Of a DNA stretch of 64,000 bases, positions 44,061 to 62,437 are shown piece after piece. This DNA comes from an uncultured Rhizobiaceae bacterium (GTDB lineage: Bacteria > Pseudomonadota > Alphaproteobacteria > Rhizobiales > Rhizobiaceae): NCBI GenBank assembly GCA_964383325.1, contig CAYLGY010000001.1, forward strand, positions 7,230 to 71,229, in the 5' to 3' direction. The notes under the pieces are model-generated. The model saw only the letters and a list, made by a program, of their open reading frames with translations. It searched no databases and was not told where the DNA came from. The position numbers and the translations under genes were made by a program. Position 1 is the first letter of the stretch. Each line of letters begins with the position of its first letter.

Positions 44061-44063
44061 GGC

Positions 44064-44097
44064 GTGATCCGGAAAATGGAACCTGCTTTCAACCGGA
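44064..44097. repeat. REP/RIME-like element (degenerate copy)
   Basis: GTGATCCGGAAAATGGAACCTGCTTTCAACCGG. Confidence 0.4.
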
Positions 44098-44127
44098 GAC
44101 CAAGCCGCGTGGCTGCCTGCCGCACGG

Positions 44128-44565
44128 TCATCCAGCCTGGCTGCCTTCCCCGTTCCTGCCTGACTCCCTTACCTGAATTTGCACCCGCGCGGTTCCGGCA
44201 AGGACCACATCGCCGCCATTGCGGGCCAGTTCGAGGACGAGTTCTGCTTCGGGACCGCCGCCGGTGTCCTCCGCAGTTCTGATTTCCACACAGCGCGCAG
44301 TCAGGAGGTCGCCCGGCCAGACCGGGCTCTTGAATCGTACCGCGTAGTGCCTCACGCTTCCCGGGCCGAACCAACGGGTAAGCGCAGATCCCAGTAGCCC
44401 AGCCGAAAGCATCCCGTGCGCCATGACATCCGGAAGTCCTGCTCCCGTTGCAAAGGCGTGGTCATGGTGGAGCGGGTTGAAGTCTCCCGAGGCGCCGGCG
44501 TAGCGGACGAGGTCGGTGCGGGTGATCGGGCCGTAGGTATGCGGTGGCGGGAGCGACAGCTTCAT
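44128..44565 (-). CDS. MaoC-family (R)-specific enoyl-CoA hydratase, catalytic hot-dog subunit
   Basis: ORF trimmed to MKLSLPPP.... Catalytic motif ASGDFNPLHHDHAFA...HGM. Confidence 0.75.
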   Translation of the reverse strand: MKLSLPPPHTYGPITRTDLVRYAGASGDFNPLHHDHAFATGAGLPDVMAHGMLSAGLLGSALTRWFGPGSVRHYAVRFKSPVWPGDLLTARCVEIRTAEDTGGGPEAELVLELARNGGDVVLAGTARVQIQVRESGRNGEGSQAG

Positions 44566-44978
44566 GGCGATCCTGGAGCTTTCTCGACCGACTTCATGGT
44601 CTCTCGGCAGACGGACACACCTGTGTCCGCGCAGCGGAATTCCACTTCGGTCGTCACAATTCGCATCGTGCCTCCGCGTCTTCCGGTCTTGGTCTCGTCT
44701 GCGACCAGCCGTGCCCGGCATTTCAGCCGGTCGCCGACCCGAATGGGTCGCGAATAGCTGTATTGGTGTTCGCCATGAACGGTGCGCGAGCGGTCGAGGT
44801 CCAGGATCGAGGTCACCAGGCGCTCGACGAAGCAGGCCGATGCCACGACAGGGAAGGTCGGCGGCGCGAAGTTGCCTTCCTTCCAATGCGGATCATGAAT
44901 GGCGAGTGCAAACTCCCGCACCTTCCCCGCCTCCACGGTGAAGTCCCACTCCTCGAGAATGTCTCCGACCTTTATCAT
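44562..44978 (-). CDS. MaoC N-terminal-type (FAS1-like) hot-dog subunit, partner of 44128-44565
   Basis: Long ORF trimmed to MIKVGDILEEWDFTVEAGKVREFALAIHDP.... ATGA overlaps on both sides. The arrangement resembles HadA/HadB or ChsH-type heterodimers. Confidence 0.7.
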   Translation of the reverse strand: MIKVGDILEEWDFTVEAGKVREFALAIHDPHWKEGNFAPPTFPVVASACFVERLVTSILDLDRSRTVHGEHQYSYSRPIRVGDRLKCRARLVADETKTGRRGGTMRIVTTEVEFRCADTGVSVCRETMKSVEKAPGSP

Positions 44979-45778
44979 GCCATTGTTCCGAGCAACTTGC
45001 GGCGCCGCGACACCAGCAGCAGCACCGCGAGGGCCATCAGGTTGAATGCGATCAGCAGCGTTGCGACCGCGGTGATGGTAGGGTTGACCTGGAGCATCAG
45101 CTCGCTGAACATCCGTTTTGGAATCGTGACGTGCGTGCCCGAGATGAAGAGCGTCACCACCACCTCGTCGAAGCTCATGACGAACGTGAAGATCCAGACG
45201 GCGGCTGCGCTCGGCACGAGGTTTGGCAGTACGACCCGGGTCAGGATCTGCCACTGCGAGGCGCCGAGTGTTGCCGCCACCTGCTCGATTCGGACATCGA
45301 AGCTGCGGATCGCCGCCTGCATGATCAGCACCACGAAGGGTACGGCGAGGATGGTATGGCCGAGCACCAGGCCGAAAAAGGTGCCAAGCAGCCCGATGCG
45401 GGCGAACAGGATATAGAGTGATACAGCGGTGATGATCGAAGGCACGATCATCGGCGCCATGAAATTCGCCTCGATCGCCCGGCGCCCGAAGAAACTGCCG
45501 CGGACCAGCACATAGGACGCGAGCGTGCCGCAGATCAATGCCGCCGTGCTGGAAAGGGCCGCGAGCAGAAGCGAGTTCTTCCCTGCGTCGATCCAGATCG
45601 GGTTGCCGAGCAGGTTCTCGTACCAGCGGAGTGACAGCGAAGGCGGAGGAAACTCGAGCGATTGCGCGCTCGAGAACGACATTGGCGCAACGATGAGCAC
45701 CGGCAGGCACAGGAACACCAGGACGAGCGCGCCTGCGATCGTCAACCAGACACTGGAGAGCCAACCTCGCTGGTTCAT
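44975..45778 (-). CDS. ABC transporter permease (PotC/binding-protein-dependent type)
   Basis: ORF trimmed to MNQRGWLSS.... EAA-loop region IEQVAATLGASQWQILTRVVLP. Confidence 0.85.
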   Translation of the reverse strand: MNQRGWLSSVWLTIAGALVLVFLCLPVLIVAPMSFSSAQSLEFPPPSLSLRWYENLLGNPIWIDAGKNSLLLAALSSTAALICGTLASYVLVRGSFFGRRAIEANFMAPMIVPSIITAVSLYILFARIGLLGTFFGLVLGHTILAVPFVVLIMQAAIRSFDVRIEQVAATLGASQWQILTRVVLPNLVPSAAAVWIFTFVMSFDEVVVTLFISGTHVTIPKRMFSELMLQVNPTITAVATLLIAFNLMALAVLLLVSRRRKLLGTMA

Positions 45779-46704
45779 TGATAACGCTCCCTCAGCCACT
45801 GGTAGACGGCGTACAAGAAAACGGTGACCACCATCAGCACCACGGAGACGACTGCGGCGATCTCCCAGCGGGCAAAGCGGTTGATCAGGAGATCCATCAT
45901 ATTGGCGATCAACGGGACGCGTCCACCTCCAAGCACGGCCGGCGTGATGTAGAAGCCGAGGCTGAGAATGAAGACGAGGATGGCGGAGGCGGCAAGCGCA
46001 GGGACCGTCAGCGGAAAGAAAACCTGCCAGAAGATCCGTATACGGCTGGCTCCGAGCGTCTCGGCCACCTGGAGAAGGCGCATGTCTACCCGGATCATCG
46101 CGGCATAGAGCGGCAGCACGAGAAACGGTAGCAGCACGTTTGTCATTCCGATGAGAATGCCGAGTTCGTTGTAAAGGAACTCGATCGGTCGATCTGTCAG
46201 GCCAAGCCATTGCAGGGCACGGTTCACAAGCCCGCCATTGCCCAGGATGACGATCCAGGCATAGGTCCGGACGAGGATCGACACCCAGAAGGTCATTACC
46301 ACCAGCGCCAGCATGGTCAATCGCAGCCGGGGCCGGAGCTTCGTGATCCAGTAAGCGAGCGGATAACCCAGAAGGATGGTCAGCAAGGTGACCTCCAGCG
46401 AGATGACAATTGTGCGCCAGATAATCCGGATGTATGCGCTGGATTCAACGAAATCGCGGAAATGCTGCGCCGTCAGTGCACCGGTTTCGGAGTCGCTTAT
46501 ACTCCAATAGGCCGTATTCAGAAGCGGGATGTCGAATACACCCATCGTCAACAGCGCCAGGGGCGCGATCAGGACGACAAGGTCCCAGCGCACCTTGTGC
46601 GACCGGCGAGATGGCGCGGCAGCCGGTTTGGCTGCCGTTCCAATCGTCGTCACGGAGACTTCGCTCACTTCATGCTTCCGCGTCACCAGGGCCGTTTCTT
46701 TCAC
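45775..46704 (-). CDS. ABC transporter permease (PotB type)
   Basis: 309 aa. EAA loop LLQVAETLGASRIRIFWQVFFP. ATGA overlap with the downstream permease. Confidence 0.85.
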   Translation of the reverse strand: MKETALVTRKHEVSEVSVTTIGTAAKPAAAPSRRSHKVRWDLVVLIAPLALLTMGVFDIPLLNTAYWSISDSETGALTAQHFRDFVESSAYIRIIWRTIVISLEVTLLTILLGYPLAYWITKLRPRLRLTMLALVVMTFWVSILVRTYAWIVILGNGGLVNRALQWLGLTDRPIEFLYNELGILIGMTNVLLPFLVLPLYAAMIRVDMRLLQVAETLGASRIRIFWQVFFPLTVPALAASAILVFILSLGFYITPAVLGGGRVPLIANMMDLLINRFARWEIAAVVSVVLMVVTVFLYAVYQWLRERYQ

Positions 46705-47726
46705 TGCAGTAGCTTGAAGTCGTTCCAGCGCTTCTCGACTTCCTTGGCGTTTTCATACCACCACTGGCCGGGCATCAGCCACTGCTGCTTCTTGTTCTCG
46801 GCCGAGGTAGGGAAAGTCTCGAGGACTTCTGGCGAGACGATCTTCTCCAGTTTCGGGCTGGGTCCGGGGTAGGGGAGGAAGTCCATCATGCACTTCTGAG
46901 CCTCGGCTTTGGTCTGGAATCGCAGCCATTCGTAGAGCATGTCGCGCTGCTCGTCGGAAATGCCCTTGGCTACTGTCCACCAGGAGAGGTCGAGCATGCC
47001 CTGATTGTAGGTCGATTCGACCCCCTCCTGTCCGAACACGCGTCCCGACCAGGCGATGGCATACTGCACTTCATTGTCCCTCAGCAGTTGCGCGGGCTGC
47101 GCGCCTGACTGCCACCAGATCACATGATCCTTCACGCGCTCCAGAGTCTTGAAGGCACGGTCGAGGTCCAGTCCCTGCGAGACGTCCTCGAGCGTCATTC
47201 CGTCGCCCATGGCCGCGAAAGCAAGCAGGAATTCCGGATAGTCGGGGAGTGCGCGCTTGCCCGGAAACTTTTCGATGTCGAAGAAGTCGACGAAGTTCTG
47301 CGGCGCCTTGGCGTCGCTGCGCCAGGCCATGATTGTCGAGAAATAGCTCTGGCCGAAGCCGTTCGGGTTCTTGGCTTCCTCGAACATCGGTTCCGGATTG
47401 AGCTTTGCCCAGTCGATTGGCTCGAGCAACCCCTCAGCAGCCTGGCGATACATGTCCCCGGTAGCAGCGTCGGTTACGGTATTGATGATGACCCCGGATC
47501 TCGCTTGGGCCGCGATCTTGGCGTAGCCGCCGGGAGTATCCTGGACGACCTTGATTCCCTCGCTCTCCAGCAGAGGCTCGTTCACGCATTTGTCGAGGGC
47601 GTCCGCGAATTCGCCCCCCGAGTTCATGATGTGCAGTTCCCTGACTTCCTGCGCACCGAGCTGCGTTGACCAGGCCGTCATGGCGACGGCGCACAATAGC
47701 ACGAATTTGCGATCCAGTTTTTGCAT
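46701..47726 (-). CDS. ABC transporter periplasmic solute-binding protein (PotD/PotF-like family 1)
   Basis: Signal peptide MQKLDRKFVLLCAVAMTAWSTQLGAQE. 341 aa. Confidence 0.8.
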   Translation of the reverse strand: MQKLDRKFVLLCAVAMTAWSTQLGAQEVRELHIMNSGGEFADALDKCVNEPLLESEGIKVVQDTPGGYAKIAAQARSGVIINTVTDAATGDMYRQAAEGLLEPIDWAKLNPEPMFEEAKNPNGFGQSYFSTIMAWRSDAKAPQNFVDFFDIEKFPGKRALPDYPEFLLAFAAMGDGMTLEDVSQGLDLDRAFKTLERVKDHVIWWQSGAQPAQLLRDNEVQYAIAWSGRVFGQEGVESTYNQGMLDLSWWTVAKGISDEQRDMLYEWLRFQTKAEAQKCMMDFLPYPGPSPKLEKIVSPEVLETFPTSAENKKQQWLMPGQWWYENAKEVEKRWNDFKLLQ

Positions 47727-47751
47727 TTCCTCACCCTCTGTCTTGTTATTG

Positions 47752-48852
47752 TCAGCAGAAATTTGTTCCTACCGTTTCCACCGTTGCGGCCCTTGAATGC
47801 ACGGAATCTTCCGTTTCGTTCGGAAGCAGCCACACCCGATCCGGATCCCATGACAGCCAGACCTGAGCGCCCTCCGAAAAGCGCGCTCGTGCTCCTCCGA
47901 CATTGACCGTGAACATCTGTCCGCTCCCGGTCTCGACCGAGTACCGCGCAACTTCTCCCAGGAAGACCACGTCGCGCACGGTGCCACGCACGAAACCGCT
48001 GGCGCCGTCTGCCGAGATCTCTTCCGGTCGTATCAATCCGCAGACGCGTTCCCCCTTCGCGCGACCGTAGGCGGAGCACGGATAGCGGGCGCCGTTGATG
48101 AGGATGGCACCGTCGCCGTCGAGCGTGCCTTCGACGAAATTTGCCAGGCCGAGGAAACCCGCCGCAAAGCGTGTGCGCGGCTTGTGATAGATCTCGTCCG
48201 GCGTTCCGATCTGCTCGACCCTGCCGCCGGCCAGCAATACGATGCGGTCCGAGAGCGAGAGCGCTTCTTCCTGGTCGTGCGTCACCATGATGGTCGTGAT
48301 GCCGAGGCTGCGCTGCAGCGACCGGATTTCCGACCGCACCTCCTCACGCAGCTTCCGGTCGAGCGCGGCGAGCGGCTCGTCCAGCAGCAGAATGTCAGGT
48401 TTGAAAACGATGGCGCGCGCGAGCGCGACGCGCTGCTGCTGGCCGCCGGACAATTGGTGGGGGCGACGCTGCTCGAAACCTGTCAGGCGCACCAGCCGCA
48501 AGGCTTCTGACACACGCGAGCCAATTTCAGATGAGGGCAATTTCCGCACCTTGAGCGGAAACGCTACATTGTCGAAGATGCTCATATGCGGAAAGAGCGC
48601 GTAGCTCTGGAACACGAGACCTATGTTCCGCTGCGCGGCCGGTACATGCGTAATATCACGATCGCCGAGATCGATACGGCCGGTGGTCGGAGCGGCGATG
48701 CCGGCGATCAACGAGAGCATGGTCGTCTTGCCCGAACCGCTTGGTCCCAGGATGGTGGTGAACTCGCCGGATTCTACCGAAAGCGTCAGATCGCCAATGG
48801 CCGTGACCGAGCCATAGGATTTCGATACATCGGAAAACCGAACTTTCGTCAT
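47752..48852 (-). CDS. ABC transporter ATP-binding protein (PotA/MalK-like with C-terminal TOBE-like domain)
   Basis: Motifs GPSGSGKTT, LSGGQQQRVALARA and LLLDEPLAALD. Confidence 0.9.
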   Translation of the reverse strand: MTKVRFSDVSKSYGSVTAIGDLTLSVESGEFTTILGPSGSGKTTMLSLIAGIAAPTTGRIDLGDRDITHVPAAQRNIGLVFQSYALFPHMSIFDNVAFPLKVRKLPSSEIGSRVSEALRLVRLTGFEQRRPHQLSGGQQQRVALARAIVFKPDILLLDEPLAALDRKLREEVRSEIRSLQRSLGITTIMVTHDQEEALSLSDRIVLLAGGRVEQIGTPDEIYHKPRTRFAAGFLGLANFVEGTLDGDGAILINGARYPCSAYGRAKGERVCGLIRPEEISADGASGFVRGTVRDVVFLGEVARYSVETGSGQMFTVNVGGARARFSEGAQVWLSWDPDRVWLLPNETEDSVHSRAATVETVGTNFC

Positions 48853-48886
48853 TGCTGTTCGTCCTGTCGACCGGCCATGGAGATCC

Positions 48887-50314
48887 TCAGGTGACCTGCG
48901 GCCAGTTGGTCCTGGGCCTTATGCCAGCGCGCTCGGCGGTTCGGGCGGCAGAGTGGCGGGCCAGGTGGTTGATCTCGGCCTCGTCGAGCCGCACCAGTCG
49001 CCCATGCCGGACGATGATCTCGCCGTTGCAAAGAACAGTGTCGACTCCCTTGGTGCGGGAGACGAGCATGAGCTGTCGCACCACGTCGATGTTGGGCTGC
49101 GCGTCCGGCAGCTCCGTGGAGCGCAGGACGATGTCGGCGCGCTTGCCGACTTCGATGCTGCCCACTTGCTGCTCGAACCCGAGCGCGCGTGCGCCGCCCA
49201 GCGTGAACATTTCGAGGATGGATTCCGCTGGCAGATACTCGCTCCATTCGCGGCTGACCAGATAGGCGATGATGCCGAGGTCGCCGAAGGCCCAGGTCTT
49301 GGCGATGTCCGTTCCAAGGCCGATCGCGGTGCCGCGCCGCTGCAGTTCGGGAAAGGCGCTTCGGCCAGTCTGCGAGATCGCGTAGTACATGAAATTGCCG
49401 GGGTGCCAGACCAGTGCCATGCCGCTTTGCGCGACTGCCTCGATCTCCTCGCGCGACAGGATATTCATGTGCGTAAAGACGCTGTTCGGCCCGATCAGCC
49501 CCTGTTCGGCAAAGTGAACCATGGCCGGCTTGCCGAAACGCTTCTCGTCATAGCCGGCATCGGAGACCATGAGGCTTTGATGCTGGTGGAAGACGGTTCC
49601 TTCACGGTCGGCCAATGTTTTCGCGGCGCGCATCAGCTCATCCGTGGCGCTGCCGACCCCGTAGATCGCCACATGGCCGCGAGCAAGCGCATCCTCGTCC
49701 CGATTGCGCTTCAGCTGCCCGCCCATCTCCTTCATGGCGCGGTCGTGGCTGCATGGTGCTGCCGGTATGTCGGCGGCCATCGGTTCGCCGCCGACCAGAT
49801 CCCACAACATGCAGTCGCTGACGGAGCAGCGTATGCCGACGGCTCCAGCAGCCTCTACGATTGCGTCGGGAGAGAAGCTGGTGGCTGCATCGACAAAACC
49901 CGTGAAGCCATTCCGCGCCATTTCCGCCGAAGCCATGAGGGCGCTGGCGTACTCGTCCTCTTCCGTGACGGCATTGATCCAGCGCGTGAACACGCCCGGA
50001 CCCGCGCCGCCTTCTTCCTTCGGTGGGTTGGGATTGTCGGTTATCGAGCCCCTGCTAAGGTGCAGGCCGGCATGGTAGTGGCCGTCAATGAAGCCGGGAT
50101 GCACTGGAGCGCCCTTCGCATCCAACCGACGCGCCGAGCGCCAGGAGCGCTCGATCTGCAATGTCGGACCGACTGCGGCGATCTTCCTGCCGACGATTGC
50201 GATCGCACCGTCCGGATAGATGGTGCGTGTACCGTCCATCGTAAGCACATAACCGTGGACGATCAGCAGATCGCAGCTTTTCGGTGCGCCGTTGCTCTGT
50301 TCGTTGAGGCTCAT
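48887..50314 (-). CDS. Amidohydrolase-superfamily metallohydrolase
   Basis: 475 aa. N-terminal beta-sandwich followed by the HxH metal motif (HPGFIDGHYHAG). Confidence 0.8.
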   Translation of the reverse strand: MSLNEQSNGAPKSCDLLIVHGYVLTMDGTRTIYPDGAIAIVGRKIAAVGPTLQIERSWRSARRLDAKGAPVHPGFIDGHYHAGLHLSRGSITDNPNPPKEEGGAGPGVFTRWINAVTEEDEYASALMASAEMARNGFTGFVDAATSFSPDAIVEAAGAVGIRCSVSDCMLWDLVGGEPMAADIPAAPCSHDRAMKEMGGQLKRNRDEDALARGHVAIYGVGSATDELMRAAKTLADREGTVFHQHQSLMVSDAGYDEKRFGKPAMVHFAEQGLIGPNSVFTHMNILSREEIEAVAQSGMALVWHPGNFMYYAISQTGRSAFPELQRRGTAIGLGTDIAKTWAFGDLGIIAYLVSREWSEYLPAESILEMFTLGGARALGFEQQVGSIEVGKRADIVLRSTELPDAQPNIDVVRQLMLVSRTKGVDTVLCNGEIIVRHGRLVRLDEAEINHLARHSAARTAERAGIRPRTNWPQVT

Positions 50315-50317
50315 GGC

Positions 50318-51988
50318 CTATTCTCCGATCTTCCCGGTCTCGCGATCCCATGCACCCTGCCGCAGGTCGCTCTTCTCCTTGAGAAGGCTCTGCTTCTGCA
50401 CGCGCATGGAGGGTGTCCGCTCGAAATCCGTGTCGCGGAATTCGATGAAGCGCGGGATCTTGAACGCGGCGAGATTGGCCTGGCAGAAGGCGATCACCTC
50501 CTCCGGCGGAAAGCTCTCGTCGGGCCTGAGCTGGATGTAGGCCTTGACCTCTTCGCCCCGCAAATCGTCCGGGACCGGAACGACCGCGGCCTCGACCACC
50601 TTGGGATGCGACCTCAGGACCCCCTCGACCTCGGCGGCCGAAATGTTTTCGCCGGAACGACGGATGATCTCCTTCTTTCGTCCGACGAAGTAGAGCAACC
50701 CGCGTTCGTCGCGGCGGGCAACGTCGCCGGAATGGTACCAGCCGCCGCGGTTGGCTTCAGCCGTAACTTCCGGCCGGTTCAGGTAGCCGGCGTAAAGGTC
50801 CGGTCCGCCGATCAGGCATTCGCCGGCCTCGCCCAAGGGCACGTCGACGTCATTGTCGTCGACCAGCCGGATGGTAACGCCGGGCGGCTCCACGCCCATC
50901 GTACCGGTGCCGACGAGCTCGTCGGCCAGATGATGCGGCACGCGGCTCATCACGCCACCTTCGGTGCTGCCGTACTGGTTGTGCCATTGGAAGCCGTAGC
51001 GGTCGAGCATCTCTCGATGCAGTTCCTTCGGCAGGCCGGCATGGATGGCGAGGCGGATGCGATGGTCCCGCTCCGCCGGGCCGGGTTCTCCCTTGAGAAG
51101 AAGAGCCGGGATCGAAGCGATGGAGAGTATTTCGGTCGCGTCGTATTTCGTCACCACCTCCCAGAAGCGCGATACAGAGAAGCGGCGCATCGCTACCATG
51201 GTGCCCCGGCTCGCGAGCGAGGTGAGCAGCTGGATCGCAGGGTCGGCGTAGTAGAATGGCAGACAACACAATTGCCGGTCCTGCCAGCCGCGCCGGAACA
51301 GGCGCAGGTCGATATCGATCACCCGCAGCCACCAGCCGTGATGCAACATGCAGCCCTTCGGGGCGCCAGTCGTTCCCGAAGTGTAGTAGACTGTGACGAT
51401 ATCCTCGCGCTCGCACTTCACCCTGGTGAAGTCGAGCGGCTCGGCCGCGTTCTCATAGCGAGCCAGACCATCCGGCTCGTCCCCTTCTACCACGATGATG
51501 TGCTGGAGAGACGGGGAATTGCCCCGCACGGCTTCGATGATCGGCTGCTGCGTCTTGCCGATGATCGAGACGGTGGGTTGCGCGTCAGTGACGATGTGGC
51601 CGGCGTCGTATTGCATGGCGGTCGGAGCGATGGAGACCATCGTCGCCCGGTTTGCGATAATGCCGAAGAGGGCGATCATGAATTCCAGGCGATTGTCGAG
51701 CATCATGACGACGCGGTCGCCTGGCTTGACCTTGTCGCTCAGATAGCCGGCGAAGCGCTGGCAGCGATCCAGAAACTCCCGCCGTGTCATGACAGGACCG
51801 CCGTCGATGATGATGGCAGGCCGCTCGGGATCCTCCAGGCAGCCCTGCACGACGATTTCGACCACCGTCTGATGGGGCACCGCGCTCCAGTCCGGCGCGA
51901 CATTCTCGTGCTTTACCCAATGTGCCGGACGAGGCGGCACATCCGCCACACCAAGTTCCGTTCGAGCGTTGGTAAGGGAGTTCATCAC
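50318..51988 (-). CDS. AMP-dependent acyl-CoA synthetase/ligase
   Basis: AMP-binding motif YYTSGTTGAPKGCML. 556 aa. Confidence 0.85.
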   Translation of the reverse strand: MMNSLTNARTELGVADVPPRPAHWVKHENVAPDWSAVPHQTVVEIVVQGCLEDPERPAIIIDGGPVMTRREFLDRCQRFAGYLSDKVKPGDRVVMMLDNRLEFMIALFGIIANRATMVSIAPTAMQYDAGHIVTDAQPTVSIIGKTQQPIIEAVRGNSPSLQHIIVVEGDEPDGLARYENAAEPLDFTRVKCEREDIVTVYYTSGTTGAPKGCMLHHGWWLRVIDIDLRLFRRGWQDRQLCCLPFYYADPAIQLLTSLASRGTMVAMRRFSVSRFWEVVTKYDATEILSIASIPALLLKGEPGPAERDHRIRLAIHAGLPKELHREMLDRYGFQWHNQYGSTEGGVMSRVPHHLADELVGTGTMGVEPPGVTIRLVDDNDVDVPLGEAGECLIGGPDLYAGYLNRPEVTAEANRGGWYHSGDVARRDERGLLYFVGRKKEIIRRSGENISAAEVEGVLRSHPKVVEAAVVPVPDDLRGEEVKAYIQLRPDESFPPEEVIAFCQANLAAFKIPRFIEFRDTDFERTPSMRVQKQSLLKEKSDLRQGAWDRETGKIGE

Positions 51989-53723: not shown

Positions 53724-53882
53724 CAGATTGTAGCCCTTACATATGTGGAAACAGCTGTCACAGCGCCTCCCACCTGCTCCTGCGGCAAGGTTCACCTCCC
53801 TGAAATCTGACGTCGCCACTCCTCTGCTTGCCAATTGCGTAGCTGGACAGTGCCGACCGCTTGTGATGGACAGGAAAGAATA

Positions 53883-53912
53883 AAATGAATATGATGTCAA
53901 CATCAATTTTCG
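53883..53912 (-). promoter_or_regulatory. Shared ~30-nt box, copy A (faces the SDR...MaoC operon; also 59 nt upstream of the aminotransferase gene)
   Basis: The minus strand reads GAAAATTGATGTTGACATCATATTCATTTT, 26/30 identical to copy B at 56025. Confidence 0.55.
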
Positions 53913-53969
53913 CCGCGATCCTTCGGCAAACACTGGGCCTGATCGGACCGCGCGGGGCAAGGAGGACCA

Positions 53970-55196: not shown

Positions 55197-55228
55197 AGGA
55201 CGGGCAGGCGCAGTCGCCCTGAGCCGGC

Positions 55229-55942: not shown

Positions 55943-56024
55943 GGTGGCATCCTTTCAGGGGCGATATTGCACCGCGCCCTTCCTGAATCAACCTTGCGTT
56001 GGATAGCATGCGTTGACGGACGCA

Positions 56025-56054
56025 GAAAATTGATATTGACTTCATGTTCATATT
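56025..56054 (+). promoter_or_regulatory. Shared ~30-nt box, copy B (tetR / thiolase-like divergent region)
   Basis: GAAAATTGATATTGACTTCATGTTCATATT, followed by TATAAT. Lies 92 nt upstream of ATG 56146. Confidence 0.55.
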
Positions 56055-56145
56055 GTATAATTCCTGATTTGGAAATGGCCCGCAAGCTCGGGGGTGCCAG
56101 GCGCCGCCCGTTGCTACGGCGGCCCTGTGCAGAACGGAAGATATC

Positions 56146-57306
56146 ATGCCGCATCCACTTGCTTCCTCGCCTGTCTACATCGTCGGGGCGGCCGAGGCGC
56201 CGCTGGGGAAGGTACTCGACCAGAACGAATTCTCGATGGTTGCCATGGCGGCGCAGGAAGCGCTTTCAGAGGCCGGGTTGGGCATGCGCGACGTGGATGC
56301 CGTCTTCACCAACTACATGGGAGAAGAGGGCTCCGTTCAGCTCGGCGAATATCTTGGCCTGCAGCCGCGCTATGCCGAATCGTCCGACATGGGCGGCGCC
56401 TCTTTCGAGTTCTTCGTGCATCATGCCATGGCCGCGATCGCGACCGGCCGGTGCGAGGTGGCCCTGATCGCCTACGCTTCGCGCCAGCGCAGCCGGCGGA
56501 ACCGCAAGAAGTCTGCCGCGGCGCTCGATGGCTCGCTCTCCGCCCAGTTCGAGACACCTTACGGCATCCATTTTCCAATCGGCCACTATGCGCTGAGTGC
56601 CGCGCGCTACATGCATCAGTACGGGGTCGGGCCCGAACATCTTGCAGAGATCGCAGTCGCAGCGCGCCAGTGGGCGGCGCTGAATCCGAAGGCGTGGGTC
56701 CGCGACCCGCTTACGATCGACGATGTCATGGCCTCGCCGCTGCTTTGCGATCCGCTGCGCAAGCTGGACTGCTGCCTGGTGACGGATGGCGGCGGCGCGA
56801 TCGTGGTCGCGCGCAGGGAGCGGGCCCGCGACGCGGCAAAGCGTCCAATCCGCGTGCTCGGCGCCGGTGAAAGCCACGTGCAATGGCATGTCGCACAATG
56901 CCCCGACCTGACCGTCACCCCGGGGGTGGCATCTGGCCGGGATGCATTCGGAATGGCGGGCATTACCCCGGCCGACGTAGACGTGTTCCAGCCTTATGAC
57001 AATTTCACCCACGCGGTGCTGCTCTATCTGGAGGATCTTGGCTTCTGCAAGAAGGGCGAGGCCGGCGACTTCGTCTCCGAAGGACGACTGCGGCCTGGCG
57101 GAGGCCTGCCCAGCATGACCTCCGGCGGTGGCCTCTCCTATTGCCATCCGGGGGCGCTTGGTATCCTTCTGCTTATCGAAGCCGTGCGTCAGCTGCGCGG
57201 CGAAGCCGGCCAGCGCCAGGTGCCGGATGCAAGGATTGCCGTGGCGCATGGTACGGGCGGATTGGCCTTTTCAACTGCTTCCACTGTGGTGCTTGCTCGT
57301 GACTGA
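56146..57306 (+). CDS. SCP-x/thiolase-fold protein apparently lacking the nucleophilic Cys (Ltp2-like aldolase candidate)
   Basis: 386 aa with a thiolase-like fold (…SGGGLSYCHPGALG…). By-eye alignment puts Gly-83 (DMGGASF...IATG) where thiolases have Cys (NQLCGSG...IATG). Confidence 0.75.
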   Translation: MPHPLASSPVYIVGAAEAPLGKVLDQNEFSMVAMAAQEALSEAGLGMRDVDAVFTNYMGEEGSVQLGEYLGLQPRYAESSDMGGASFEFFVHHAMAAIATGRCEVALIAYASRQRSRRNRKKSAAALDGSLSAQFETPYGIHFPIGHYALSAARYMHQYGVGPEHLAEIAVAARQWAALNPKAWVRDPLTIDDVMASPLLCDPLRKLDCCLVTDGGGAIVVARRERARDAAKRPIRVLGAGESHVQWHVAQCPDLTVTPGVASGRDAFGMAGITPADVDVFQPYDNFTHAVLLYLEDLGFCKKGEAGDFVSEGRLRPGGGLPSMTSGGGLSYCHPGALGILLLIEAVRQLRGEAGQRQVPDARIAVAHGTGGLAFSTASTVVLARD

Positions 57307-57700
57307 CAAAATTTCCTATTCCGACCTGGGTGCCGCCGATCCCACCACCGAGCCGTTCTGGCAGGCTTGCGCCGAAGGGAGGCTCACGGTGCAGCGCTGC
57401 ACCGGCTGTGGATCGCACCAGTTCTATCCGCGCCCCTTCTGCCTGTCGTGCGAAGCGATCTCCCTGGAGTGGGTGGAGGCCAGCGGCAACGGCACGATCT
57501 ATTCGCTGACCACTGTCCGCATGCCCGTCACGGACGAATTGCCGCCCCCCTATCTGCTGGCCCTCGTCGACCTCGAGGAAGGGCCGCGGTTGCTCACCAA
57601 TATCGAGGCCGAGTCGGCTAGAATTGGCGATCGCGTAAAGGTCGCATGGCGACAAAGGGAAGGGCTCCCTCCGCTTCCGGTCTTCGAGCCCGCCGGCTGA
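57299..57700 (+). CDS. DUF35 OB-fold/Zn-ribbon protein
   Basis: Zn ribbon CTGCGSHQFYPRPFCLSC followed by an OB-fold. Probable GTG start overlaps the upstream stop (GTGACTGA). Confidence 0.7.
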   Translation: MTDKISYSDLGAADPTTEPFWQACAEGRLTVQRCTGCGSHQFYPRPFCLSCEAISLEWVEASGNGTIYSLTTVRMPVTDELPPPYLLALVDLEEGPRLLTNIEAESARIGDRVKVAWRQREGLPPLPVFEPAG

Positions 57701-57703
57701 AGG

Positions 57704-58900
57704 ATGAGTACCGCCGCTGCGAGTCCCGTCGAAGATTGTATCTTGCGAATTGGCGAGCTGATTGGATTTCCGACAGTCTCGCGCGATCCGAACCGCGAGC
57801 TTCTACACTCCGTGGAAAGCCTGCTCGCCGCCCACGGCATCTCTTCGGACATCCTCTGGAACGCGGAAGGGACCAAGGGCAATCTCTGGGCCACCATCGG
57901 TCCACCCGATGTCCCTGGGGTGATCCTGTCCGGCCATAGTGATGTCGTTCCGGTCGACGGTCAGGCCTGGACCAGCGACCCATTCGTGCTCCGTCGAGCA
58001 GATGGACGACTCTATGGTCGTGGGGCCTGCGACATGAAGGGGTTCATCGGCATCATCCTTGCCGCGGTTCCCGCGCTTGTGCAGCGCGACCTCAAGGCGC
58101 CGATCCACATCGCGATCTCCTATGACGAGGAAATCGGATGCCTGGGCGTCACCAGCCTCATCGAGCGGATTGCGGCCATGCCGGTGAAGCCCGCATTGTG
58201 CATCGTCGGCGAGCCGACCAGCATGCGGGTCGTGCTCGGCCACAAGGGCGGAGGCCTGTTCCGGGTTTCGGTTTCGGGGAGCAGCGCGCATTCGAGCCTC
58301 GCCCCGACCGCGGTCAATGCAGTCGAATACGCGGCCGAACTGATCGGCTTCATCCGGGGCCTTTCGACCGAGCATGTCCACGCTGGTCCGCACGACCATG
58401 GCTATGACGTGAGCCATTCCACGCTATCGGTCACCTCGATCCATGGCGGGACGGCGATGAACATCATCCCCAACAGCTGCGAATTCACCTTCGATATCCG
58501 CTCGCTGCCGGAGGTGGATGCCGCTGCGCTCGTGAAGCGCATCCGGCACCACGCAGATACCACGCTCCTCCCTCGCATGCGTTCGGTTGCCCCGGATGCG
58601 ACGATCGGAATCGAGACGCTGGTCGAGCTCGTGGGTTTGTCCACCGAGGAAGAACATCCGGCAGTGACATTCGTGAAGCGACTGGTCGGCCGCAACGATC
58701 ACGCGAAGGTTGCCTTTGGGACCGAGGCAGGTCTCTTCAGCAAGAGGGCGGGCGTGCCTTCCGTGGTGTGCGGCCCGGGCTCGATCGAGCAGGCGCACAA
58801 GCCCGACGAGTTCATCGAGATTTCCGAGGTGGAACGCTGTCGCGTTTTCATTGACAGGCTCGCAACGCAGCTGGAACAATCCAGCCTGCCCTGGGCCTGA
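57704..58900 (+). CDS. M20-family deacylase (ArgE/acetylornithine deacetylase-like)
   Basis: LSGHSDVVPV and YGRGACDMKGF motifs. 398 aa. Confidence 0.8.
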   Translation: MSTAAASPVEDCILRIGELIGFPTVSRDPNRELLHSVESLLAAHGISSDILWNAEGTKGNLWATIGPPDVPGVILSGHSDVVPVDGQAWTSDPFVLRRADGRLYGRGACDMKGFIGIILAAVPALVQRDLKAPIHIAISYDEEIGCLGVTSLIERIAAMPVKPALCIVGEPTSMRVVLGHKGGGLFRVSVSGSSAHSSLAPTAVNAVEYAAELIGFIRGLSTEHVHAGPHDHGYDVSHSTLSVTSIHGGTAMNIIPNSCEFTFDIRSLPEVDAAALVKRIRHHADTTLLPRMRSVAPDATIGIETLVELVGLSTEEEHPAVTFVKRLVGRNDHAKVAFGTEAGLFSKRAGVPSVVCGPGSIEQAHKPDEFIEISEVERCRVFIDRLATQLEQSSLPWA

Positions 58901-58944
58901 ACTGTCAGTCGAAGCGCCGGCGCGCTGCAAGTCGGGAGGGGAAT

Positions 58945-59610
58945 ATGCCGACAAGAATATACGAAACCGAGGTCGAACTACTGCCAAAGGACGAGCTCAG
59001 TGCATGGGCGAGCATTCCGGTCACCATCGTCTCTGATGTGAGCGCCGGAAGATTTATCGCAGATCCGCGCATCCGTCCGCTGCGACCGTTTGCGTTGGGC
59101 AGGCGAATGGTCGGACAGGTCGTGACGGCCTGGTGCGAGCGGGGGGATTTCGGACCGGTCCTGCATGCGCTGGACCTCGCTCGTGCCGGTGAGGTCGTCG
59201 TAGTCGACGCGGGCGGCTGCCTGCAGACGGCATATGCGGGCGAGATCCTGTGCAGCTACGCGCGCAAGAAAGGCATTGCCGGCTTCGCCATCAACGGCGC
59301 ATTGAGAGATATCGATACGATCGGCAACTGGGAGGATTTTCCCGCCTTTGCCTTGGGAAACACGGCCCGAGGGCCGATCTCGAAAGATCGAGGCTCCGTC
59401 AATGGCGAAATTGTCTTTGCGGGAATTGTTGCGCGGCCTGGCGACATCATGCTCGGTGACAATGATGGCCTTGCCATCATCCCGCGCGCGGAAGCCTCCG
59501 TTGTCCTGAAGGAAGCGCAGAAGCGCCTGGGCATGGAAGAAGACTGGGTGGCGCAGCTCGCCACTGGACGGACATTGAAAGACGTTTTCAGCCTTCAGGC
59601 CGTCAGGTGA
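58945..59610 (+). CDS. RraA-family protein (RraA / 4-hydroxy-4-methyl-2-oxoglutarate aldolase-like)
   Basis: Motifs GEVVVVDAGG...AYAGEIL, INGALRD and GDNDGLAIIP. Confidence 0.75.
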   Translation: MPTRIYETEVELLPKDELSAWASIPVTIVSDVSAGRFIADPRIRPLRPFALGRRMVGQVVTAWCERGDFGPVLHALDLARAGEVVVVDAGGCLQTAYAGEILCSYARKKGIAGFAINGALRDIDTIGNWEDFPAFALGNTARGPISKDRGSVNGEIVFAGIVARPGDIMLGDNDGLAIIPRAEASVVLKEAQKRLGMEEDWVAQLATGRTLKDVFSLQAVR

Positions 59611-59645
59611 TGTTGCAGATTGCCTGCTGAACTTGCCCGTCTGCG

Positions 59646-59667
59646 CATGATCTATTCGGGAAAGCGG
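59646..59667. repeat. REP/RIME-like element (degenerate fragment)
   Basis: CATGATCTATTCGGGAAAGCGG. Confidence 0.3.
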
Positions 59668-59771
59668 TGAAAAAACTGAGTAACGTCGAGCTCAGGTTCC
59701 TTACCAGTGTCTGTCTATTGTGATACTCCTTGTCTGCAACGCCGATCCACCCGGTCAAGAAGGGACATCAC

Positions 59772-61286
59772 ATGGAACACCCGACGCCCCAAACCTACCG
59801 CGGCAATGATCGGTTGCTGTTTGGCATCATCCTGGGCGTGCTCGCCTTCTGGCTGTTTGCGCAAACGACACTGAATATCGCGCCGGACATGGCAGCGGAT
59901 CTCCAGCTCGAACAATCCCTGATGAATATTGCGGTGTCGATCACCGCGCTGTTTTCCGGCATCTTCATCGTGGTCATGGGCGGCCTCGCGGACCGGTTGG
60001 GCCGCGTCAGGATCCTGATGTATGGCTTCATTCTCTCCATCATCGGCTCGCTGCTGGTCGGACTGGCGCCCTCCGGCGGCCTCGGCAGCACATTCCTGAT
60101 GCTCGGCCGCATCTGCCAGGGGCTTTCCGCGGCATTCATCATGCCCTCGTCACTGGCGCTGGTGAAAGCCTATTGGGAGGGAGCGGAGCGCCAGAGGGCA
60201 ATTTCGCTCTGGTCGATGGGGTCGTGGGGCGGCTCGGGATTTGCAGCGCTTTTTGGCGGGTTGATGGCACAGAATGTCGGCTGGCGCTGGATTTTCATCA
60301 TTGCCGCCATCGTATCTGTTGTCGGCATGCTCATGGTGCGCGGCACGCCTGAGAGCAAGGCTCCGCAAAAAGCAGACTACAAGTTCGACCTGCCTGGTGT
60401 GGTAACCTTCATGATCGCGATGGTGGCATTGCAGATTTATGCCACGCAAGGCAGCGCATGGGGCTGGACCAGCCTGGCCTCGTTTGGCCTGCTGGCTGTT
60501 GCTGTGATCTTCAGCATCCTGTTCTATCGGATCGAAAGCAATAATCCGAACGCGTTTGTCCAGTTCCGCCTGTTCAGGAACCTGACCTATACTGGCGCGA
60601 CGACATCAAACCTGCTGTTGAATGCCACCGCCGGCATCATCATGGTCGCCATGCTGGTCTTGCAGCAGGGTGGCGAGATGACCGCACAGAAGGCTGGGCT
60701 TCTGACCATCGGCTATGCCATAACCATTCTTGCCTTCATCCGCTTTGGTGAAAAGCTGCTGCAGCGGCATGGACCCCGCAAGCCAATGCTTTGGGGCAGC
60801 TATATTGTCGCCGTGTCGATCGCGTTGCTGATGCCGACCAACCTGATGCTTGGCACCTATACCCTTCTGGCGATCATCGCATTTTCGTTGTTTGGCGTCG
60901 GCCTTGCCTTCTACGCCACGCCTTCTACCGATGCGGCACTGTCCAACCTGCCGGAGGACCAGGCAGGTGCGGGCGCCGGCATCTACAAGATGGCCTCTTC
61001 GCTGGGTGCATCCTTTGGCGTTGCCATCTCGGCCACGATCTACACCGCCATCGCCGGGGATCCGCAAGGAGTCGAGTGGATCGAAGGGGTCATAACCTTC
61101 ACGGGTAACCAGGAAAACCTGGCTTCGCGTGAAGCGGCCTTCTTCGCCTTGCTGGCCAATCTTGTCATGGTGGCAGCCGCGGTCGTTTCCATCCTGCTCA
61201 CCGTGCCGAAAGGCAAGTCAGTGGAGCGAGTCGATCCAGCCCCCGCCAGGCGTATCGATCCGGACATTTCGGGAGAAGTGACATGA
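59772..61286 (+). CDS. MFS transporter, 14-TMS DHA2 (EmrB/QacA)-like
   Basis: ORF trimmed to MEHPTPQTYRGNDRLLFG.... GGLADRLGR motif; about 14 TM segments. Confidence 0.85.
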   Translation: MEHPTPQTYRGNDRLLFGIILGVLAFWLFAQTTLNIAPDMAADLQLEQSLMNIAVSITALFSGIFIVVMGGLADRLGRVRILMYGFILSIIGSLLVGLAPSGGLGSTFLMLGRICQGLSAAFIMPSSLALVKAYWEGAERQRAISLWSMGSWGGSGFAALFGGLMAQNVGWRWIFIIAAIVSVVGMLMVRGTPESKAPQKADYKFDLPGVVTFMIAMVALQIYATQGSAWGWTSLASFGLLAVAVIFSILFYRIESNNPNAFVQFRLFRNLTYTGATTSNLLLNATAGIIMVAMLVLQQGGEMTAQKAGLLTIGYAITILAFIRFGEKLLQRHGPRKPMLWGSYIVAVSIALLMPTNLMLGTYTLLAIIAFSLFGVGLAFYATPSTDAALSNLPEDQAGAGAGIYKMASSLGASFGVAISATIYTAIAGDPQGVEWIEGVITFTGNQENLASREAAFFALLANLVMVAAAVVSILLTVPKGKSVERVDPAPARRIDPDISGEVT

Positions 61287-62437
61287 ATGCCATCGCCCGG
61301 CAGCTTGACACGGAGACGATGCGGCAGTGGTTCGAGCACATGCATCGCCATCCCGAACTTTCGATGCAAGAGACCAACACCGCAGCGTTCATCGCCGAGA
61401 CACTACGAGGCATTGGCGGCTTCGAGATCGAAACCGGCATCGGCAAGAACGGCATCGTGGCCTCGCTCAAGGTTGGCGACAGCGACAAGGTGATCGGGCT
61501 GCGCGCCGATTTCGATGCGTTGCCGATCCAGGAAGAGAACGACTTTCCATACAAGTCGACCGTTGCGGGCGTTGCCCATCTGTGCGGCCATGATGGGCAT
61601 ACCACGATGCTGCTTGGCGCGGCCCGATATCTTGCCGATACCCGCAATTTCAATGGCACTGTACGGCTGATCTTCCAGCCCGGCGAAGAGACCATGGAAG
61701 GCGGTCCGGCGATGATCGCGGACGGGCTGTTCGAACGCTTTCCGGTCGATGCCGTCTTCGGCATGCATAACATTCCCGGTCTCGAGGAAGGCAAATTCTA
61801 TTTCCACCCCGGCGAGATGATGTCGGCTGTCGACAATTGGGAGGTCGAGATCATCGGCAAGGGTGGCCATGGCGGCATCCCTGAACTGACCATCGATCCG
61901 GTCGTGGCCGGTTCGTCGATCGTGATGGCGATCCAGAGTATTGTCGCGCGCAATGTCGCGCCGGCGCATCGCGCGGTCGTGACCATCGGTGCGTTTCTGG
62001 CGGGCAATGCCGGCAATGTCGTGGCGAGCAGCGCCACCCTGCGTTTTTCCATCCGGACGACGACAGCCGAAGATCGCGAGATGGTGCTTGGCAATATCCG
62101 CCGTATCGTCGATCACCAGTCAAGATCGTTCGGCTGCAAGGCAGAGATCCGCGAGGGTATCCCCGGAGCCGTGCTGGTCAATGACAAGGAAGAAACCGAA
62201 AAAGCAGTAAGGATCGCGCAGGCGGCATTCGGCGAAGACCAGGTAATCTATCCCGGCCCATCCTTCCTTGCCTCGGAAGATTTTGCCTTCATGCTGCAAA
62301 AGAAGAAAGGCACGTACTGCTTTCTGGGCAGCGGGCCGGGCAAGATGGTTCATCACCCTGAATATTTCTTCAACCAGAACATTCTGCCTGTCGGTGCCGC
62401 GTATTGGGTTGCATTGACGGAAGGCTATTTGCGCTGA
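61283..62437 (+). CDS. M20D amidohydrolase (hippurate hydrolase / N-acyl-amino-acid amidohydrolase-like)
   Basis: HRHPELSMQE, LRADFDALP and HLCGHDGHT motifs. ATGA overlap with the MFS gene. Confidence 0.85.
   Translation: MNAIARQLDTETMRQWFEHMHRHPELSMQETNTAAFIAETLRGIGGFEIETGIGKNGIVASLKVGDSDKVIGLRADFDALPIQEENDFPYKSTVAGVAHLCGHDGHTTMLLGAARYLADTRNFNGTVRLIFQPGEETMEGGPAMIADGLFERFPVDAVFGMHNIPGLEEGKFYFHPGEMMSAVDNWEVEIIGKGGHGGIPELTIDPVVAGSSIVMAIQSIVARNVAPAHRAVVTIGAFLAGNAGNVVASSATLRFSIRTTTAEDREMVLGNIRRIVDHQSRSFGCKAEIREGIPGAVLVNDKEETEKAVRIAQAAFGEDQVIYPGPSFLASEDFAFMLQKKKGTYCFLGSGPGKMVHHPEYFFNQNILPVGAAYWVALTEGYLR

Follow-up and report, generated by a model that had tools for sequence, protein, structure and literature searches.

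A conserved, TetR-linked two-operon cluster in an uncultured Rhizobiaceae bacterium and a proposed acyl-CoA dehydrogenase-free route for breakdown of a nitrogen-bearing carboxylic acid

The window analysed here, a stretch of 64,000 nucleotides (nt) from contig CAYLGY010000001.1 of an uncultured Rhizobiaceae bacterium, contains a gene cluster in which a ten-gene operon on the minus strand and a shorter operon on the plus strand are separated by an aminotransferase gene and the gene of a TetR-family repressor. The cluster combines hot-dog hydratases, a ligase of the coenzyme A (CoA) type and a thiolase-fold protein with an importer and several nitrogen-handling enzymes. Gene list and coordinates were checked by open reading frame (ORF) listing together with Pfam and NCBIfam scans, and all 18 genes named in an earlier annotation made from the letters of this DNA (the sequence-only reading) were found with the domains it had stated. 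The genes and features of the cluster are as follows.

52824-53723, minus strand: short-chain dehydrogenase/reductase (SDR), predicted MFE-2-type (3R)-hydroxyacyl-CoA dehydrogenase, first gene of the left operon (Pfam adh_short)
51985-52827, minus strand: fused double hot-dog MaoC-like protein (Pfam FAS1_DH_region and MaoC_dehydratas)
50318-51988, minus strand: acyl-CoA ligase of the ANL family, CaiC/DitJ-like (Pfam AMP-binding and AMP-binding_C)
48887-50314, minus strand: metal-dependent amidohydrolase of the TRZ/ATZ-deaminase (cog0402-like) group (Pfam Amidohydro_1/3)
47752-48852, minus strand: ATPase of the ABC importer (Pfam ABC_tran and TOBE_2)
46701-47726, minus strand: periplasmic binding protein of the ABC importer (Pfam SBP_bac_8)
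45775-46704 and 44975-45778, minus strand: two permeases of the ABC importer (Pfam BPD_transp_1 each)
44562-44978, minus strand: MaoC-N-type subunit, non-catalytic, HadA/ChsH-like (Pfam FAS1_DH_region)
44128-44565, minus strand: MaoC catalytic subunit, MaoC-C (Pfam MaoC_dehydratas)
53882-53911, minus strand: operator box, copy A, in the divergent promoter region of the SDR operon and the aminotransferase gene
53970-55196, plus strand: class-I aminotransferase dependent on pyridoxal phosphate, LysN/KAT-II (2-aminoadipate aminotransferase) type (Pfam Aminotran_1_2)
55229-55942, minus strand: TetR-family repressor with an EthR_C-type ligand domain (Pfam TetR_N and EthR_C)
56025-56054, plus strand: operator box, copy B, in the divergent promoter region of the TetR gene and the thiolase-like operon
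56146-57306, plus strand: cysteine-less thiolase-fold protein (Pfam Thiolase_C_1 at 3e-59)
57299-57700, plus strand: DUF35 partner with Zn ribbon and OB fold (Pfam zf-ChsH2 and OB_ChsH2_C)
57704-58900, plus strand: ArgE-type M20 N-acyl-amino-acid deacylase (Pfam Peptidase_M20 and M20_dimer)
58945-59610, plus strand: RraA-like protein of the class II aldolase/oxaloacetate decarboxylase family, last conserved gene (Pfam RraA-like)

The minus-strand operon runs from the SDR gene to the MaoC pair with gaps of 3, 34 and 25 nt at three junctions and 4-nt overlaps at the others, in agreement with the gene order and the limit of 34 nt given by the sequence-only reading. The aminotransferase gene is divergent from this operon, while the TetR gene is convergent with the aminotransferase gene and divergent from the thiolase-fold gene; ORF listing and Pfam confirm the earlier placement of both genes between the two operons. 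On the plus strand, the start of the DUF35 gene overlaps the thiolase-fold gene by 8 nt. Neither an acyl-CoA dehydrogenase nor a crotonase-type hydratase was found within the interval 44128-62437, as had been noticed before. The base composition of the region is unremarkable, and scans for terminators and promoters gave counts equal to those of shuffled controls.

The two promoter regions share a sequence element. The box GAAAATTGATATTGACTTCATGTTCATATT at 56025-56054 on the plus strand matches positions 53882-53911 on the minus strand at 26 of 30 positions, and within 8 mismatches no further copy is present in the window. The box is an imperfect palindrome, AATGA-N14-TCATT, with a TTGAC(T/A) hexamer resembling a -35 element, which reads TTGACT in copy B. 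In related genomes, whose loci are compared below, a 25-mer consensus, AAATTGATATTGACTTCATATTCAT, is located 5' of the SDR operon and again 5' of the thiolase-like operon wherever a locus has the TetR gene. At both sites, 13 TetR loci deviate from the operator consensus by at most 4 mismatches; in the other complete TetR loci the SDR site has 2-5 mismatches and the thiolase-like site 6-8. Loci that have no TetR homologue in the stretch examined show background only (9-15 mismatches), and the majority of these possess a PuuR-like XRE-cupin regulator instead. A scan of the whole genome yielded two good operator sites only, namely those in the two promoter regions; a third site with 5 mismatches (contig C13, position ~21235) falls within coding sequence, namely a CarD-like ORF read from the opposite strand, and was taken as chance. 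The TetR protein thus probably represses both operons via one operator each. Because the operator is shared and co-occurs with TetR across loci, the two operons can be regarded as co-regulated. Separate regulation of the operons, which the sequence-only reading had named as the finding that would count against it, is not what is seen: the operator is shared and synteny is kept.

With its TetR_N domain, its EthR_C-like ligand domain and a weak NCBIfam match to FadR, the repressor resembles the FadR/YsiA-type TetR proteins of Bacillus, and the likeness extends to the imperfectly palindromic operator over a -35-like hexamer and to the divergent, autoregulated layout. The operator sequence and the regulon differ in being specific to this cluster.

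To evaluate the conservation of the arrangement, one genome per species was scanned, which gave 44 loci that were compared by means of a tblastn table and gene maps. Orthologous loci of Proteobacteria make up 34 of the 44, two of which belong to one Microbaculum species, so that about 33 species are represented; the carriers span several alphaproteobacterial orders and include one gammaproteobacterium. Relatives of the double hot-dog protein (50-89% identical) are numerous in metagenomes, and named carriers include Mesorhizobium, Parvibaculaceae, Microbaculum, Devosia, Kiloniellales and Rhodospirillales. The neighbourhoods in Mesorhizobium, Microbaculum and one genome of the Kiloniellales contain a ten-gene operon like that of the window, accompanied by the genes for TetR, the thiolase-like protein, DUF35 and M20. 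Among the loci compared, the constant core comprises the genes for the SDR, the double hot-dog protein, the ligase, MaoC-N, MaoC-C and a GNAT acetyltransferase, further the thiolase-like gene with DUF35, behind which M20 is usually found. The core is completed by a regulator, an RraA-like gene and an aminotransferase, a DAO-family oxidase or both. Conservation across loci is highest for the thiolase-like protein, with 64-91% identity, and for the ligase, with 63-92%; SDR orthologues are 68-85% identical in 33 loci. A gene order that is found again in about 33 species-level genomes is far beyond chance, and the minus-strand operon of ten genes forms a single unit with the divergent plus-strand set.

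Within this unit, the amidohydrolase gene and the four ABC genes behave as one block that is jointly present or absent (missing in L013, L016, L025, L034 and L043). The aminotransferase gene is present in 24 related loci, and four loci (L017, L026, L032 and L038) possess a DAO oxidase and no aminotransferase within the stretch examined; the RraA-like gene is present in 22 related loci. Such variation could suggest that two or more unrelated pathways lie side by side, the left operon on the one hand and the thiolase-like, ArgE and RraA genes on the other, in particular as the accessory genes differ by lineage (DAO, aldehyde dehydrogenase, BKACE, hydantoinase-type) and the thiolase-like operon is more than 10 kb away from the ligase operon in some genomes. 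We consider this very unlikely, since the operator stands lineage-wide before both operons in strict co-occurrence with TetR, and the thiolase-like gene is found near the ligase operon on the same contig in every genome examined, including all five genomes in which it lies beyond the 10-kb flank. Moreover, no gene of the cluster attains orthology to a characterised cluster.

The sequence-only reading had extended the plus-strand set by two further genes:

59730-61286, plus strand: DHA2-type MFS transporter, outside the conserved unit (Pfam, NCBIfam)
61283-62437, plus strand: M20D amidohydrolase, outside the conserved unit (Pfam, NCBIfam)

The MFS protein is of the DHA2/EmrB efflux type with 14 transmembrane segments; its gene follows the RraA-like gene after a gap of 119 nt and overlaps the M20D gene (hippurate-hydrolase/ILR1-type) by 4 nt. 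In none of the 44 related loci do the MFS gene, the M20D gene or the HxlR gene at the left-hand side have a counterpart next to the cluster, and the conserved unit can hence be delimited to 44128-59610. The plus-strand set as first described therefore holds from the thiolase-fold gene to the RraA-like gene and loses its last two members, which form a pair specific to this genome's version of the locus. At the left border, a GNAT acetyltransferase gene follows MaoC-C in 30 related loci, where in the window only 67 nt lie between MaoC-C and the HxlR gene (44061-44128), and six diverse GNAT orthologues gave no tblastn match in this 95%-complete genome. From its presence in 30 loci and the lack of a match across the genome we conclude that this copy of the cluster has lost the GNAT gene. 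The distribution of the cluster is rare and patchy: an orthologue of the double hot-dog protein was found neither in 40 relatives, the congener included, nor in 400 genomes sampled across the class. A megablast search of the whole region against plasmids returned short ABC and ArgE matches only.

The thiolase-fold protein, which the sequence-only reading had described as a thiolase of the SCP-x type, deserves closer inspection. In a ranking against the PDB, it matches the uncharacterised "thiolase" 4u4e best (379 bits), followed by CtSal (9myr, 185 bits) and TcLtp2 (6ok1, 175 bits), all three nearly over the full length, while the true thiolases BbsB and 7yvy reach 143 bits. At the nucleophile position, the AACASGG motif of thiolase 7yvy aligns to DMGGASF, i.e. 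the cysteine is replaced by glycine, and GG[AS]S is conserved in 23 of 23 orthologues. Where thiolases show HDAFT, Ltp2 YDHFT and Sal YDCYT, the protein has YDNFT, which is invariant in the same 23 orthologues; the histidine of the thiolase GHP motif is retained as CHPG. The nucleophilic Cys and the HD[AC]F motif of SCP-x/BbsB-type thiolases are hence both missing, so that the canonical SCP-x mechanism is not available to this protein, and the earlier assignment finds no support.

In Ltp2, Tyr294 of YDHF acts as base and Tyr344 as acid, whereas Sal employs Tyr302 and Cys304 of YDCY and has a Gln where Ltp2 has Tyr344 and a Gly in place of the nucleophile; CtSal, which carries this Gly, is stated to be incapable of thiolysis (PMC12329534). 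Of the features of the Ltp2/Sal type, the protein of the window has the SCP2-type fold, the replaced Cys, the base Tyr and a DUF35 partner with Zn ribbon; the catalytic acid residue and the steroid gene context are absent. An Asn is present where Sal has Cys304 and Ltp2 His, and the His of CHPG is found where Ltp2 has Tyr344 and Sal Gln352. Judged by these aligned residues, the protein has a third active-site arrangement that is neither that of Ltp2 nor that of Sal and that does not vary among the orthologues of the cluster, and it is a probable 3-hydroxyacyl-CoA retro-aldolase related to both. Its DUF35 partner is free-standing, i.e. not fused to a hydratase, and contains a C-x2-C-x10-C-x2-C ribbon in its sequence.

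One could still envisage a classical R-specific, thiolytic beta-oxidation, in which the thiolase-fold protein and DUF35 cleave a 3-oxoacyl-CoA and a bulky or branched side chain is shortened by C2. An MFE-2-type SDR would yield such a 3-oxoacyl-CoA, the GHP His is retained, the DUF35-associated BbsAB is a real thiolase, and a distant actinobacterial cluster of thiolase, double hot-dog protein and SDR is fully canonical. Weighed against the Gly for Cys in 23 of 23 orthologues, the change of HDxF to YDNF, the inability of CtSal with the same Gly to perform thiolysis (PMC12329534) and the higher rank of the solved aldolases compared to thiolases, thiolytic cleavage is nevertheless improbable.

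Of 401 genomes sampled from the class, 79 encode Cys-less paralogues of the thiolase-fold protein with 39-55% identity. The 29 paralogues that were read (L075-L103) all have YD[SA]FT and GG[AS]S-type motifs, and 27 of the 29 possess an adjacent DUF35 gene within the stretch examined; in some of these loci an MFE-2-type SDR or a MaoC gene is nearby. The Cys-less family is labelled acetyl-CoA acetyltransferase, yet it is incapable of the canonical thiolase mechanism. In contrast to the altered proteobacterial proteins, the distant homologous trio of thiolase, double hot-dog protein and SDR in metagenome-assembled genomes of Mycobacteriales and Frankiaceae (L046-L055) has canonical residues: the thiolase carries NNNCSTG and HDCF, and the C-terminal hot-dog keeps D..H.

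For the SDR, the best PDB matches are the (3R)-hydroxyacyl-CoA dehydrogenase of Candida MFE-2 (2et6, 364 bits) and human and rat 17beta-HSD4 (1zbq, 217 bits; 1gz6, 214 bits), and the catalytic Tyr-x3-Lys motif is present (NYAAAK). In line with the earlier MFE-2-like assignment, a ranking led by MFE-2 dehydrogenases identifies the protein as a genuine MFE-2-type dehydrogenase, as far as sequence comparison can tell. The MaoC-N and MaoC-C genes, already recognised as a pair, overlap by 4 nt and match HadA-like and HadB-like NCBIfam models, and the GDFNP[LI]HHD catalytic motif of MaoC-C is intact here and invariant in 31 orthologues; the two proteins are predicted to form a heterodimer.

The double hot-dog protein departs from expectation. 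Its fold is hydratase-2-like, but the canonical catalytic His is not there: in an alignment to hydratase 2 of human MFE-2 (1s9c), GDWNPLH corresponds to RDYSAYT, in which Asp182 is kept and the His is replaced by Thr187. The substitution is found in 35 of 35 orthologues. Because the catalytic His is Thr throughout the family, the canonical hydratase-2 mechanism is unavailable at the C-terminal site. An N-terminal D41-x-N-P-x-H46 motif is invariant across the orthologues; as a distant actinobacterial homologue with the canonical C-terminal His also has Asp-x4-His in its N-terminal half, this motif alone is no proof of a relocated active site. Candidate roles for the protein are those of an altered (de)hydratase, a thioesterase, an amine-lyase or a partner without catalytic activity. 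Compared to peroxisomal MFE-2, the arrangement is similar in that the SDR is the best bacterial-scale match to the MFE-2 dehydrogenase domain and its gene is translationally coupled to that of the adjacent hydratase-2-like double hot-dog protein, and it differs in that the activities are encoded by separate genes and the catalytic His of hydratase 2 is lost family-wide.

Several of the remaining proteins point to nitrogen-containing compounds. The structures nearest to the binding protein are 4i1d, the agropine-binding AgtB, binders of gamma-aminobutyric acid (GABA; Atu4243 and a GABA-sensor scaffold) and the mannopine-binding MotA, with E values from 1e-47 to 1e-23; the match to PotD (1pot) has an E value of 9e-5, and there is no NCBIfam match. 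The importer had been classified as PotA/D/B/C-type, which holds for the four-gene layout and the TOBE-containing ATPase and fails for the binding protein, which is nearer to GABA and mannityl-opine binders than to PotD. The best NCBIfam matches of the ligase are PRK06155 and PRK06187, with the crotonobetaine/carnitine-CoA ligase model PRK08008 at 249 bits, all of them below cut-off. For the amidohydrolase, the best NCBIfam match (166 bits versus a cut-off of 522) indicates a member of the superfamily and not an orthologue, with atrazine chlorohydrolase and MTA/SAH deaminase as PDB neighbours at ~100 bits; its GHYH, HQHQ, THMN and GTD motifs (metal ligands) are kept in 28 orthologues. The proton-shuttle Glu of TRZ/ATZ enzymes (H-x-x-E) could be read as Gln here in view of the invariant HQHQ[SN], but the alignment is ambiguous and we make no such claim.

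The M20 protein scores above the ArgE models PRK07522 (523 bits, cut-off 412) and TIGR01892 (392 bits, cut-off 298). It is predicted to be of the ArgE type, although its substrate in a catabolic context need not be acetylornithine. The aminotransferase is most similar to KAT-II homologues of Pyrococcus and Thermococcus and to LysN of T. thermophilus (218-228 bits in the PDB), and the structure nearest to the RraA-like protein is the HMG/CHA aldolase 3noj, an aldolase/oxaloacetate decarboxylase.

Several parts of the cluster mirror steroid side-chain enzymes, i.e. the MFE-2-type SDR, the double hot-dog protein, the MaoC pair, the Cys-less thiolase-fold protein with DUF35 and the ligase. In ChsH1-ChsH2-Ltp2 of actinobacteria and Shy-Sal of Comamonas testosteroni (PDB 6ok1 and 9myr; PMC12329534, PMC11321319), a MaoC-type hydratase likewise accompanies a thiolase-fold protein. 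The hydratase of the window is two-subunit like ChsH1-ChsH2, and the systems have in common the Tyr at the catalytic-base position, the Gly at the nucleophile position, a DUF35 module, a CoA ligase and an MFE-2-type SDR. They differ in that DUF35 is free-standing here, that YDNF is combined with a thiolase-type His and that 4u4e is the closest solved relative, as well as in the absence of a steroid context and of an acyl-CoA dehydrogenase and in the presence of an amino-acid/opine-type importer and of N-acyl/amino-group enzymes. A module for steroid or bile-acid side chains (Hsd4A/Hsd4B, ChsH1-ChsH2-Ltp2 or Shy-Sal type), whose substrates might be conjugated bile salts once their amide bond is hydrolysed, is accordingly extremely improbable, given that no KshA-type gene (KshA_C) was found in the 95%-complete 2.8-Mb genome, that acyl-CoA dehydrogenase and ring-cleavage genes are lacking in the 33 loci compared, that the importer is of the GABA/opine type and steroid catabolism has no use for the N-handling genes, and that the active-site motif is neither of the Ltp2 nor of the Sal type.

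DUF35 complexes also include condensing and acyl-transfer enzymes, and the cluster could in principle be biosynthetic or serve salvage, with the thiolase-fold protein and DUF35 condensing as in PhlABC or in the archaeal thiolase/HMG-CoA synthase complex. The binding-protein importer, the hydrolase, the fatty-acid-type TetR, the aminotransferase and the decarboxylase/aldolase are, however, hallmarks of catabolism, and the conserved part contains no exporter, carrier protein or tailoring gene, which leaves a biosynthetic function with very little probability.

Variants of the cluster in relatives give further hints at the substrate. In several Hyphomicrobiales genomes, M20 is followed by a 3-hydroxyacyl dehydrogenase and a beta-keto-acid cleavage enzyme (BKACE) and then by a DAO oxidase and RraA. 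BKACE recurs in L037, L038 and L041 and is absent from the cluster of the window. In one case (L062:7384-9291(-)) dehydrogenase and BKACE are fused to a protein of 635 amino acids, other variants being L063:11325-13319(+) and L041:4973-5962(+); the variant BKACE scores over the NCBIfam cut-off for '3,5-dioxohexanoate:acetyl-CoA acetone transferase'. In Kiloniellales and Rhodospirillales loci the operon begins with an aldehyde dehydrogenase of the betaine/aminoaldehyde type. No RraA-like gene was seen in the Microbaculum locus, which has a gene of the FAA_hydrolase family in the same operon and in addition a GMC oxidoreductase and an aldehyde dehydrogenase. A Devosia locus is devoid of the block of amidohydrolase and ABC genes; a hydantoinase A/B pair is adjacent there, accompanied by a LIV-type ABC system. 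A ring-opening of cyclic amides, with a hydantoinase/oxoprolinase pair replacing the block, was considered on this ground and set aside as a weak lead, as it concerns one Devosia locus and the other two HyuA proteins are ~32% identical. Taken together, GNAT, DAO, aldehyde dehydrogenase, the PuuR-like regulator and BKACE with its dehydrogenase favour a substrate that bears a primary amine and either is from the start, or is turned into, a 3-hydroxy, 3-oxo or 2-enoyl acid.

In conclusion, we regard the cluster as a real catabolic module that is conserved, regulates itself and is as yet uncharacterised, and in which the theme of hydratase and thiolase-fold aldolase appears outside steroid metabolism. 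With a confidence slightly better than even, we favour the view that 44128-59610 is a two-operon, TetR-repressed regulon for an undescribed, acyl-CoA dehydrogenase-free and CoA-dependent breakdown of an imported nitrogen-bearing carboxylic acid. The acid would be taken up by the ABC system with its GABA/mannityl-opine-like binding protein, undergo a hydrolytic C-N step catalysed by the TRZ/ATZ-type amidohydrolase and be thioesterified by the CaiC-like ligase. The two-subunit MaoC hydratase would then form or hydrate a 2-enoyl-CoA, with the double hot-dog protein as a second (de)hydratase, an amine-lyase or a non-catalytic partner. The (3R)-3-hydroxyacyl-CoA would next be a substrate of the MFE-2-type SDR, which would oxidise it, of the thiolase-fold protein with DUF35, which would cut it, or of both; the cut would be a retro-aldol reaction with acetyl-CoA and a carbonyl compound as products. 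The N-bearing remainder may finally be de-acylated by the ArgE-type M20 enzyme, transaminated by the LysN-type aminotransferase and finished by the RraA-like aldolase/decarboxylase. In relatives, GNAT presumably masks the free amine by acetylation during the thioester stage and would thereby prevent lactam formation. Such a route can dispense with an acyl-CoA dehydrogenase when the acid is a conjugated dienoate or when its beta position carries a functional group from the outset (OH, NH2 or a double bond).

With respect to the substrate, an amino- or amide-bearing acid would be the most economical class. The same class had been suggested by the sequence-only reading, and the LysN-like aminotransferase, the ArgE-like M20 enzyme, the GABA/opine-type binding protein and, in relatives, GNAT and the DAO oxidase support it. 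Each single guess within the class is unlikely on its own: beta,omega-diamino acids similar to beta-lysine or N-acetyl-beta-lysine have a modest chance, amino-dicarboxylates of the 2-aminoadipate type or their lactams a somewhat smaller one, and amide conjugates of unsaturated acids a smaller one again. In a narrower version, which we put forward tentatively as possible but doubtful, the cluster would provide an acyl-CoA dehydrogenase-independent CoA route for a small amino acid-like metabolite, with a third-type (YDNF plus His) aldolase acting outside steroids and a His-less double hot-dog protein that is no hydratase and catalyses, e.g., an amine elimination. Candidate metabolites, named with the same reserve, are beta-lysine, its N-acetyl derivative or another beta- or omega-amino acid, a lactam-forming amino acid and a 3-hydroxy-amino acid.

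Several points weigh against the proposed route. If the SDR makes 3-oxoacyl-CoA, no enzyme of the cluster would obviously cleave it, and the retro-aldol activity is an extrapolation, because the protein lacks the second catalytic residue of Ltp2 as well as that of Sal, the two characterised aldolases. The LysN-type and ArgE-type enzymes suggest alpha-amino acids, which conflicts with the omega- or beta-amino acids suggested by the binding protein and the ligase. Since GNAT is missing here, the copy in the window may be partly decayed or use a substrate that is already acylated. Finally, the pathway has been deduced from the genes, and both the substrate and the role of the double hot-dog protein are candidates.

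Known CoA-dependent routes for amino acid-like compounds resemble the proposed one in part. The carnitine/gamma-butyrobetaine CoA pathway employs CaiC, carnitine dehydrogenase and BKACE and includes the enoyl-CoA hydration of an amino acid-like compound; the CaiC-like ligase of the window and the dehydrogenase and BKACE of the Hyphomicrobiales variants are similar to it. It differs in that the hydratases here are of the hot-dog and not of the crotonase type and that the window's cluster has no BKACE. Because acetylation and deacetylation genes are present, the amine would moreover be primary, and not quaternary as in the carnitine pathway. In Pseudomonas B4, beta-lysine is degraded via N6-acetyl-beta-lysine and 4-acetamidobutyryl-CoA, a route that involves an acetyltransferase, an aminotransferase, an acetyl-CoA-dependent cleavage of a keto acid and a deacetylase. 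The CoA-dependent ammonia-lyase route for beta-valine uses the ligase BvaA and the hydratase-family lyases BvaB1/B2 (PMC4619459). Both routes are similar in that an amino acid is activated with CoA and its beta substituent removed by an enzyme of a hydratase family, for which no acyl-CoA dehydrogenase is needed; they are leads only, as the Bva lyases are of the crotonase type and the aminotransferase of the window is of the alpha-amino-acid (LysN) type. Literature searches for the gene combination returned steroid papers only, and searches for hot-dog ammonia lyases and for beta-lysine intermediates returned nothing or the beta-valine paper; the earlier statement that the cluster matches no described pathway agrees with this outcome.

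DUF35-partnered thiolase-fold aldolases have so far been characterised for steroid side chains only, and Cys-less YDxFT relatives occur in about a fifth of the sampled alphaproteobacterial genomes; solving this cluster would therefore assign a function to a large group of mis-annotated proteins, and it would reveal a breakdown route that bypasses acyl-CoA dehydrogenases. If the substrate were indeed beta-lysine-like, enzyme activities that have long been orphans would gain their genes from this cluster. Catabolic clusters without an assigned function are nothing unusual, but this one is made tractable by its enzyme variants and by the conserved operator with its TetR, a pair that constitutes a ready biosensor for the inducer.

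The chromosomal surroundings of the cluster are variable. In the congener G001 the genes flanking the cluster are present, the HxlR flank at a contig end and the Na/Pi-transporter flank with different neighbours. A clean empty site could accordingly not be demonstrated in this genome. On contig C14 of the same congener (L072), the orthologue of the Na/Pi-PhoU transporter gene is followed by genes for a D-aminoacylase-like amidohydrolase and a hydantoinase-B-like protein, and the spot at the Na/Pi-PhoU transporter seems to collect differing amide-hydrolysing modules.

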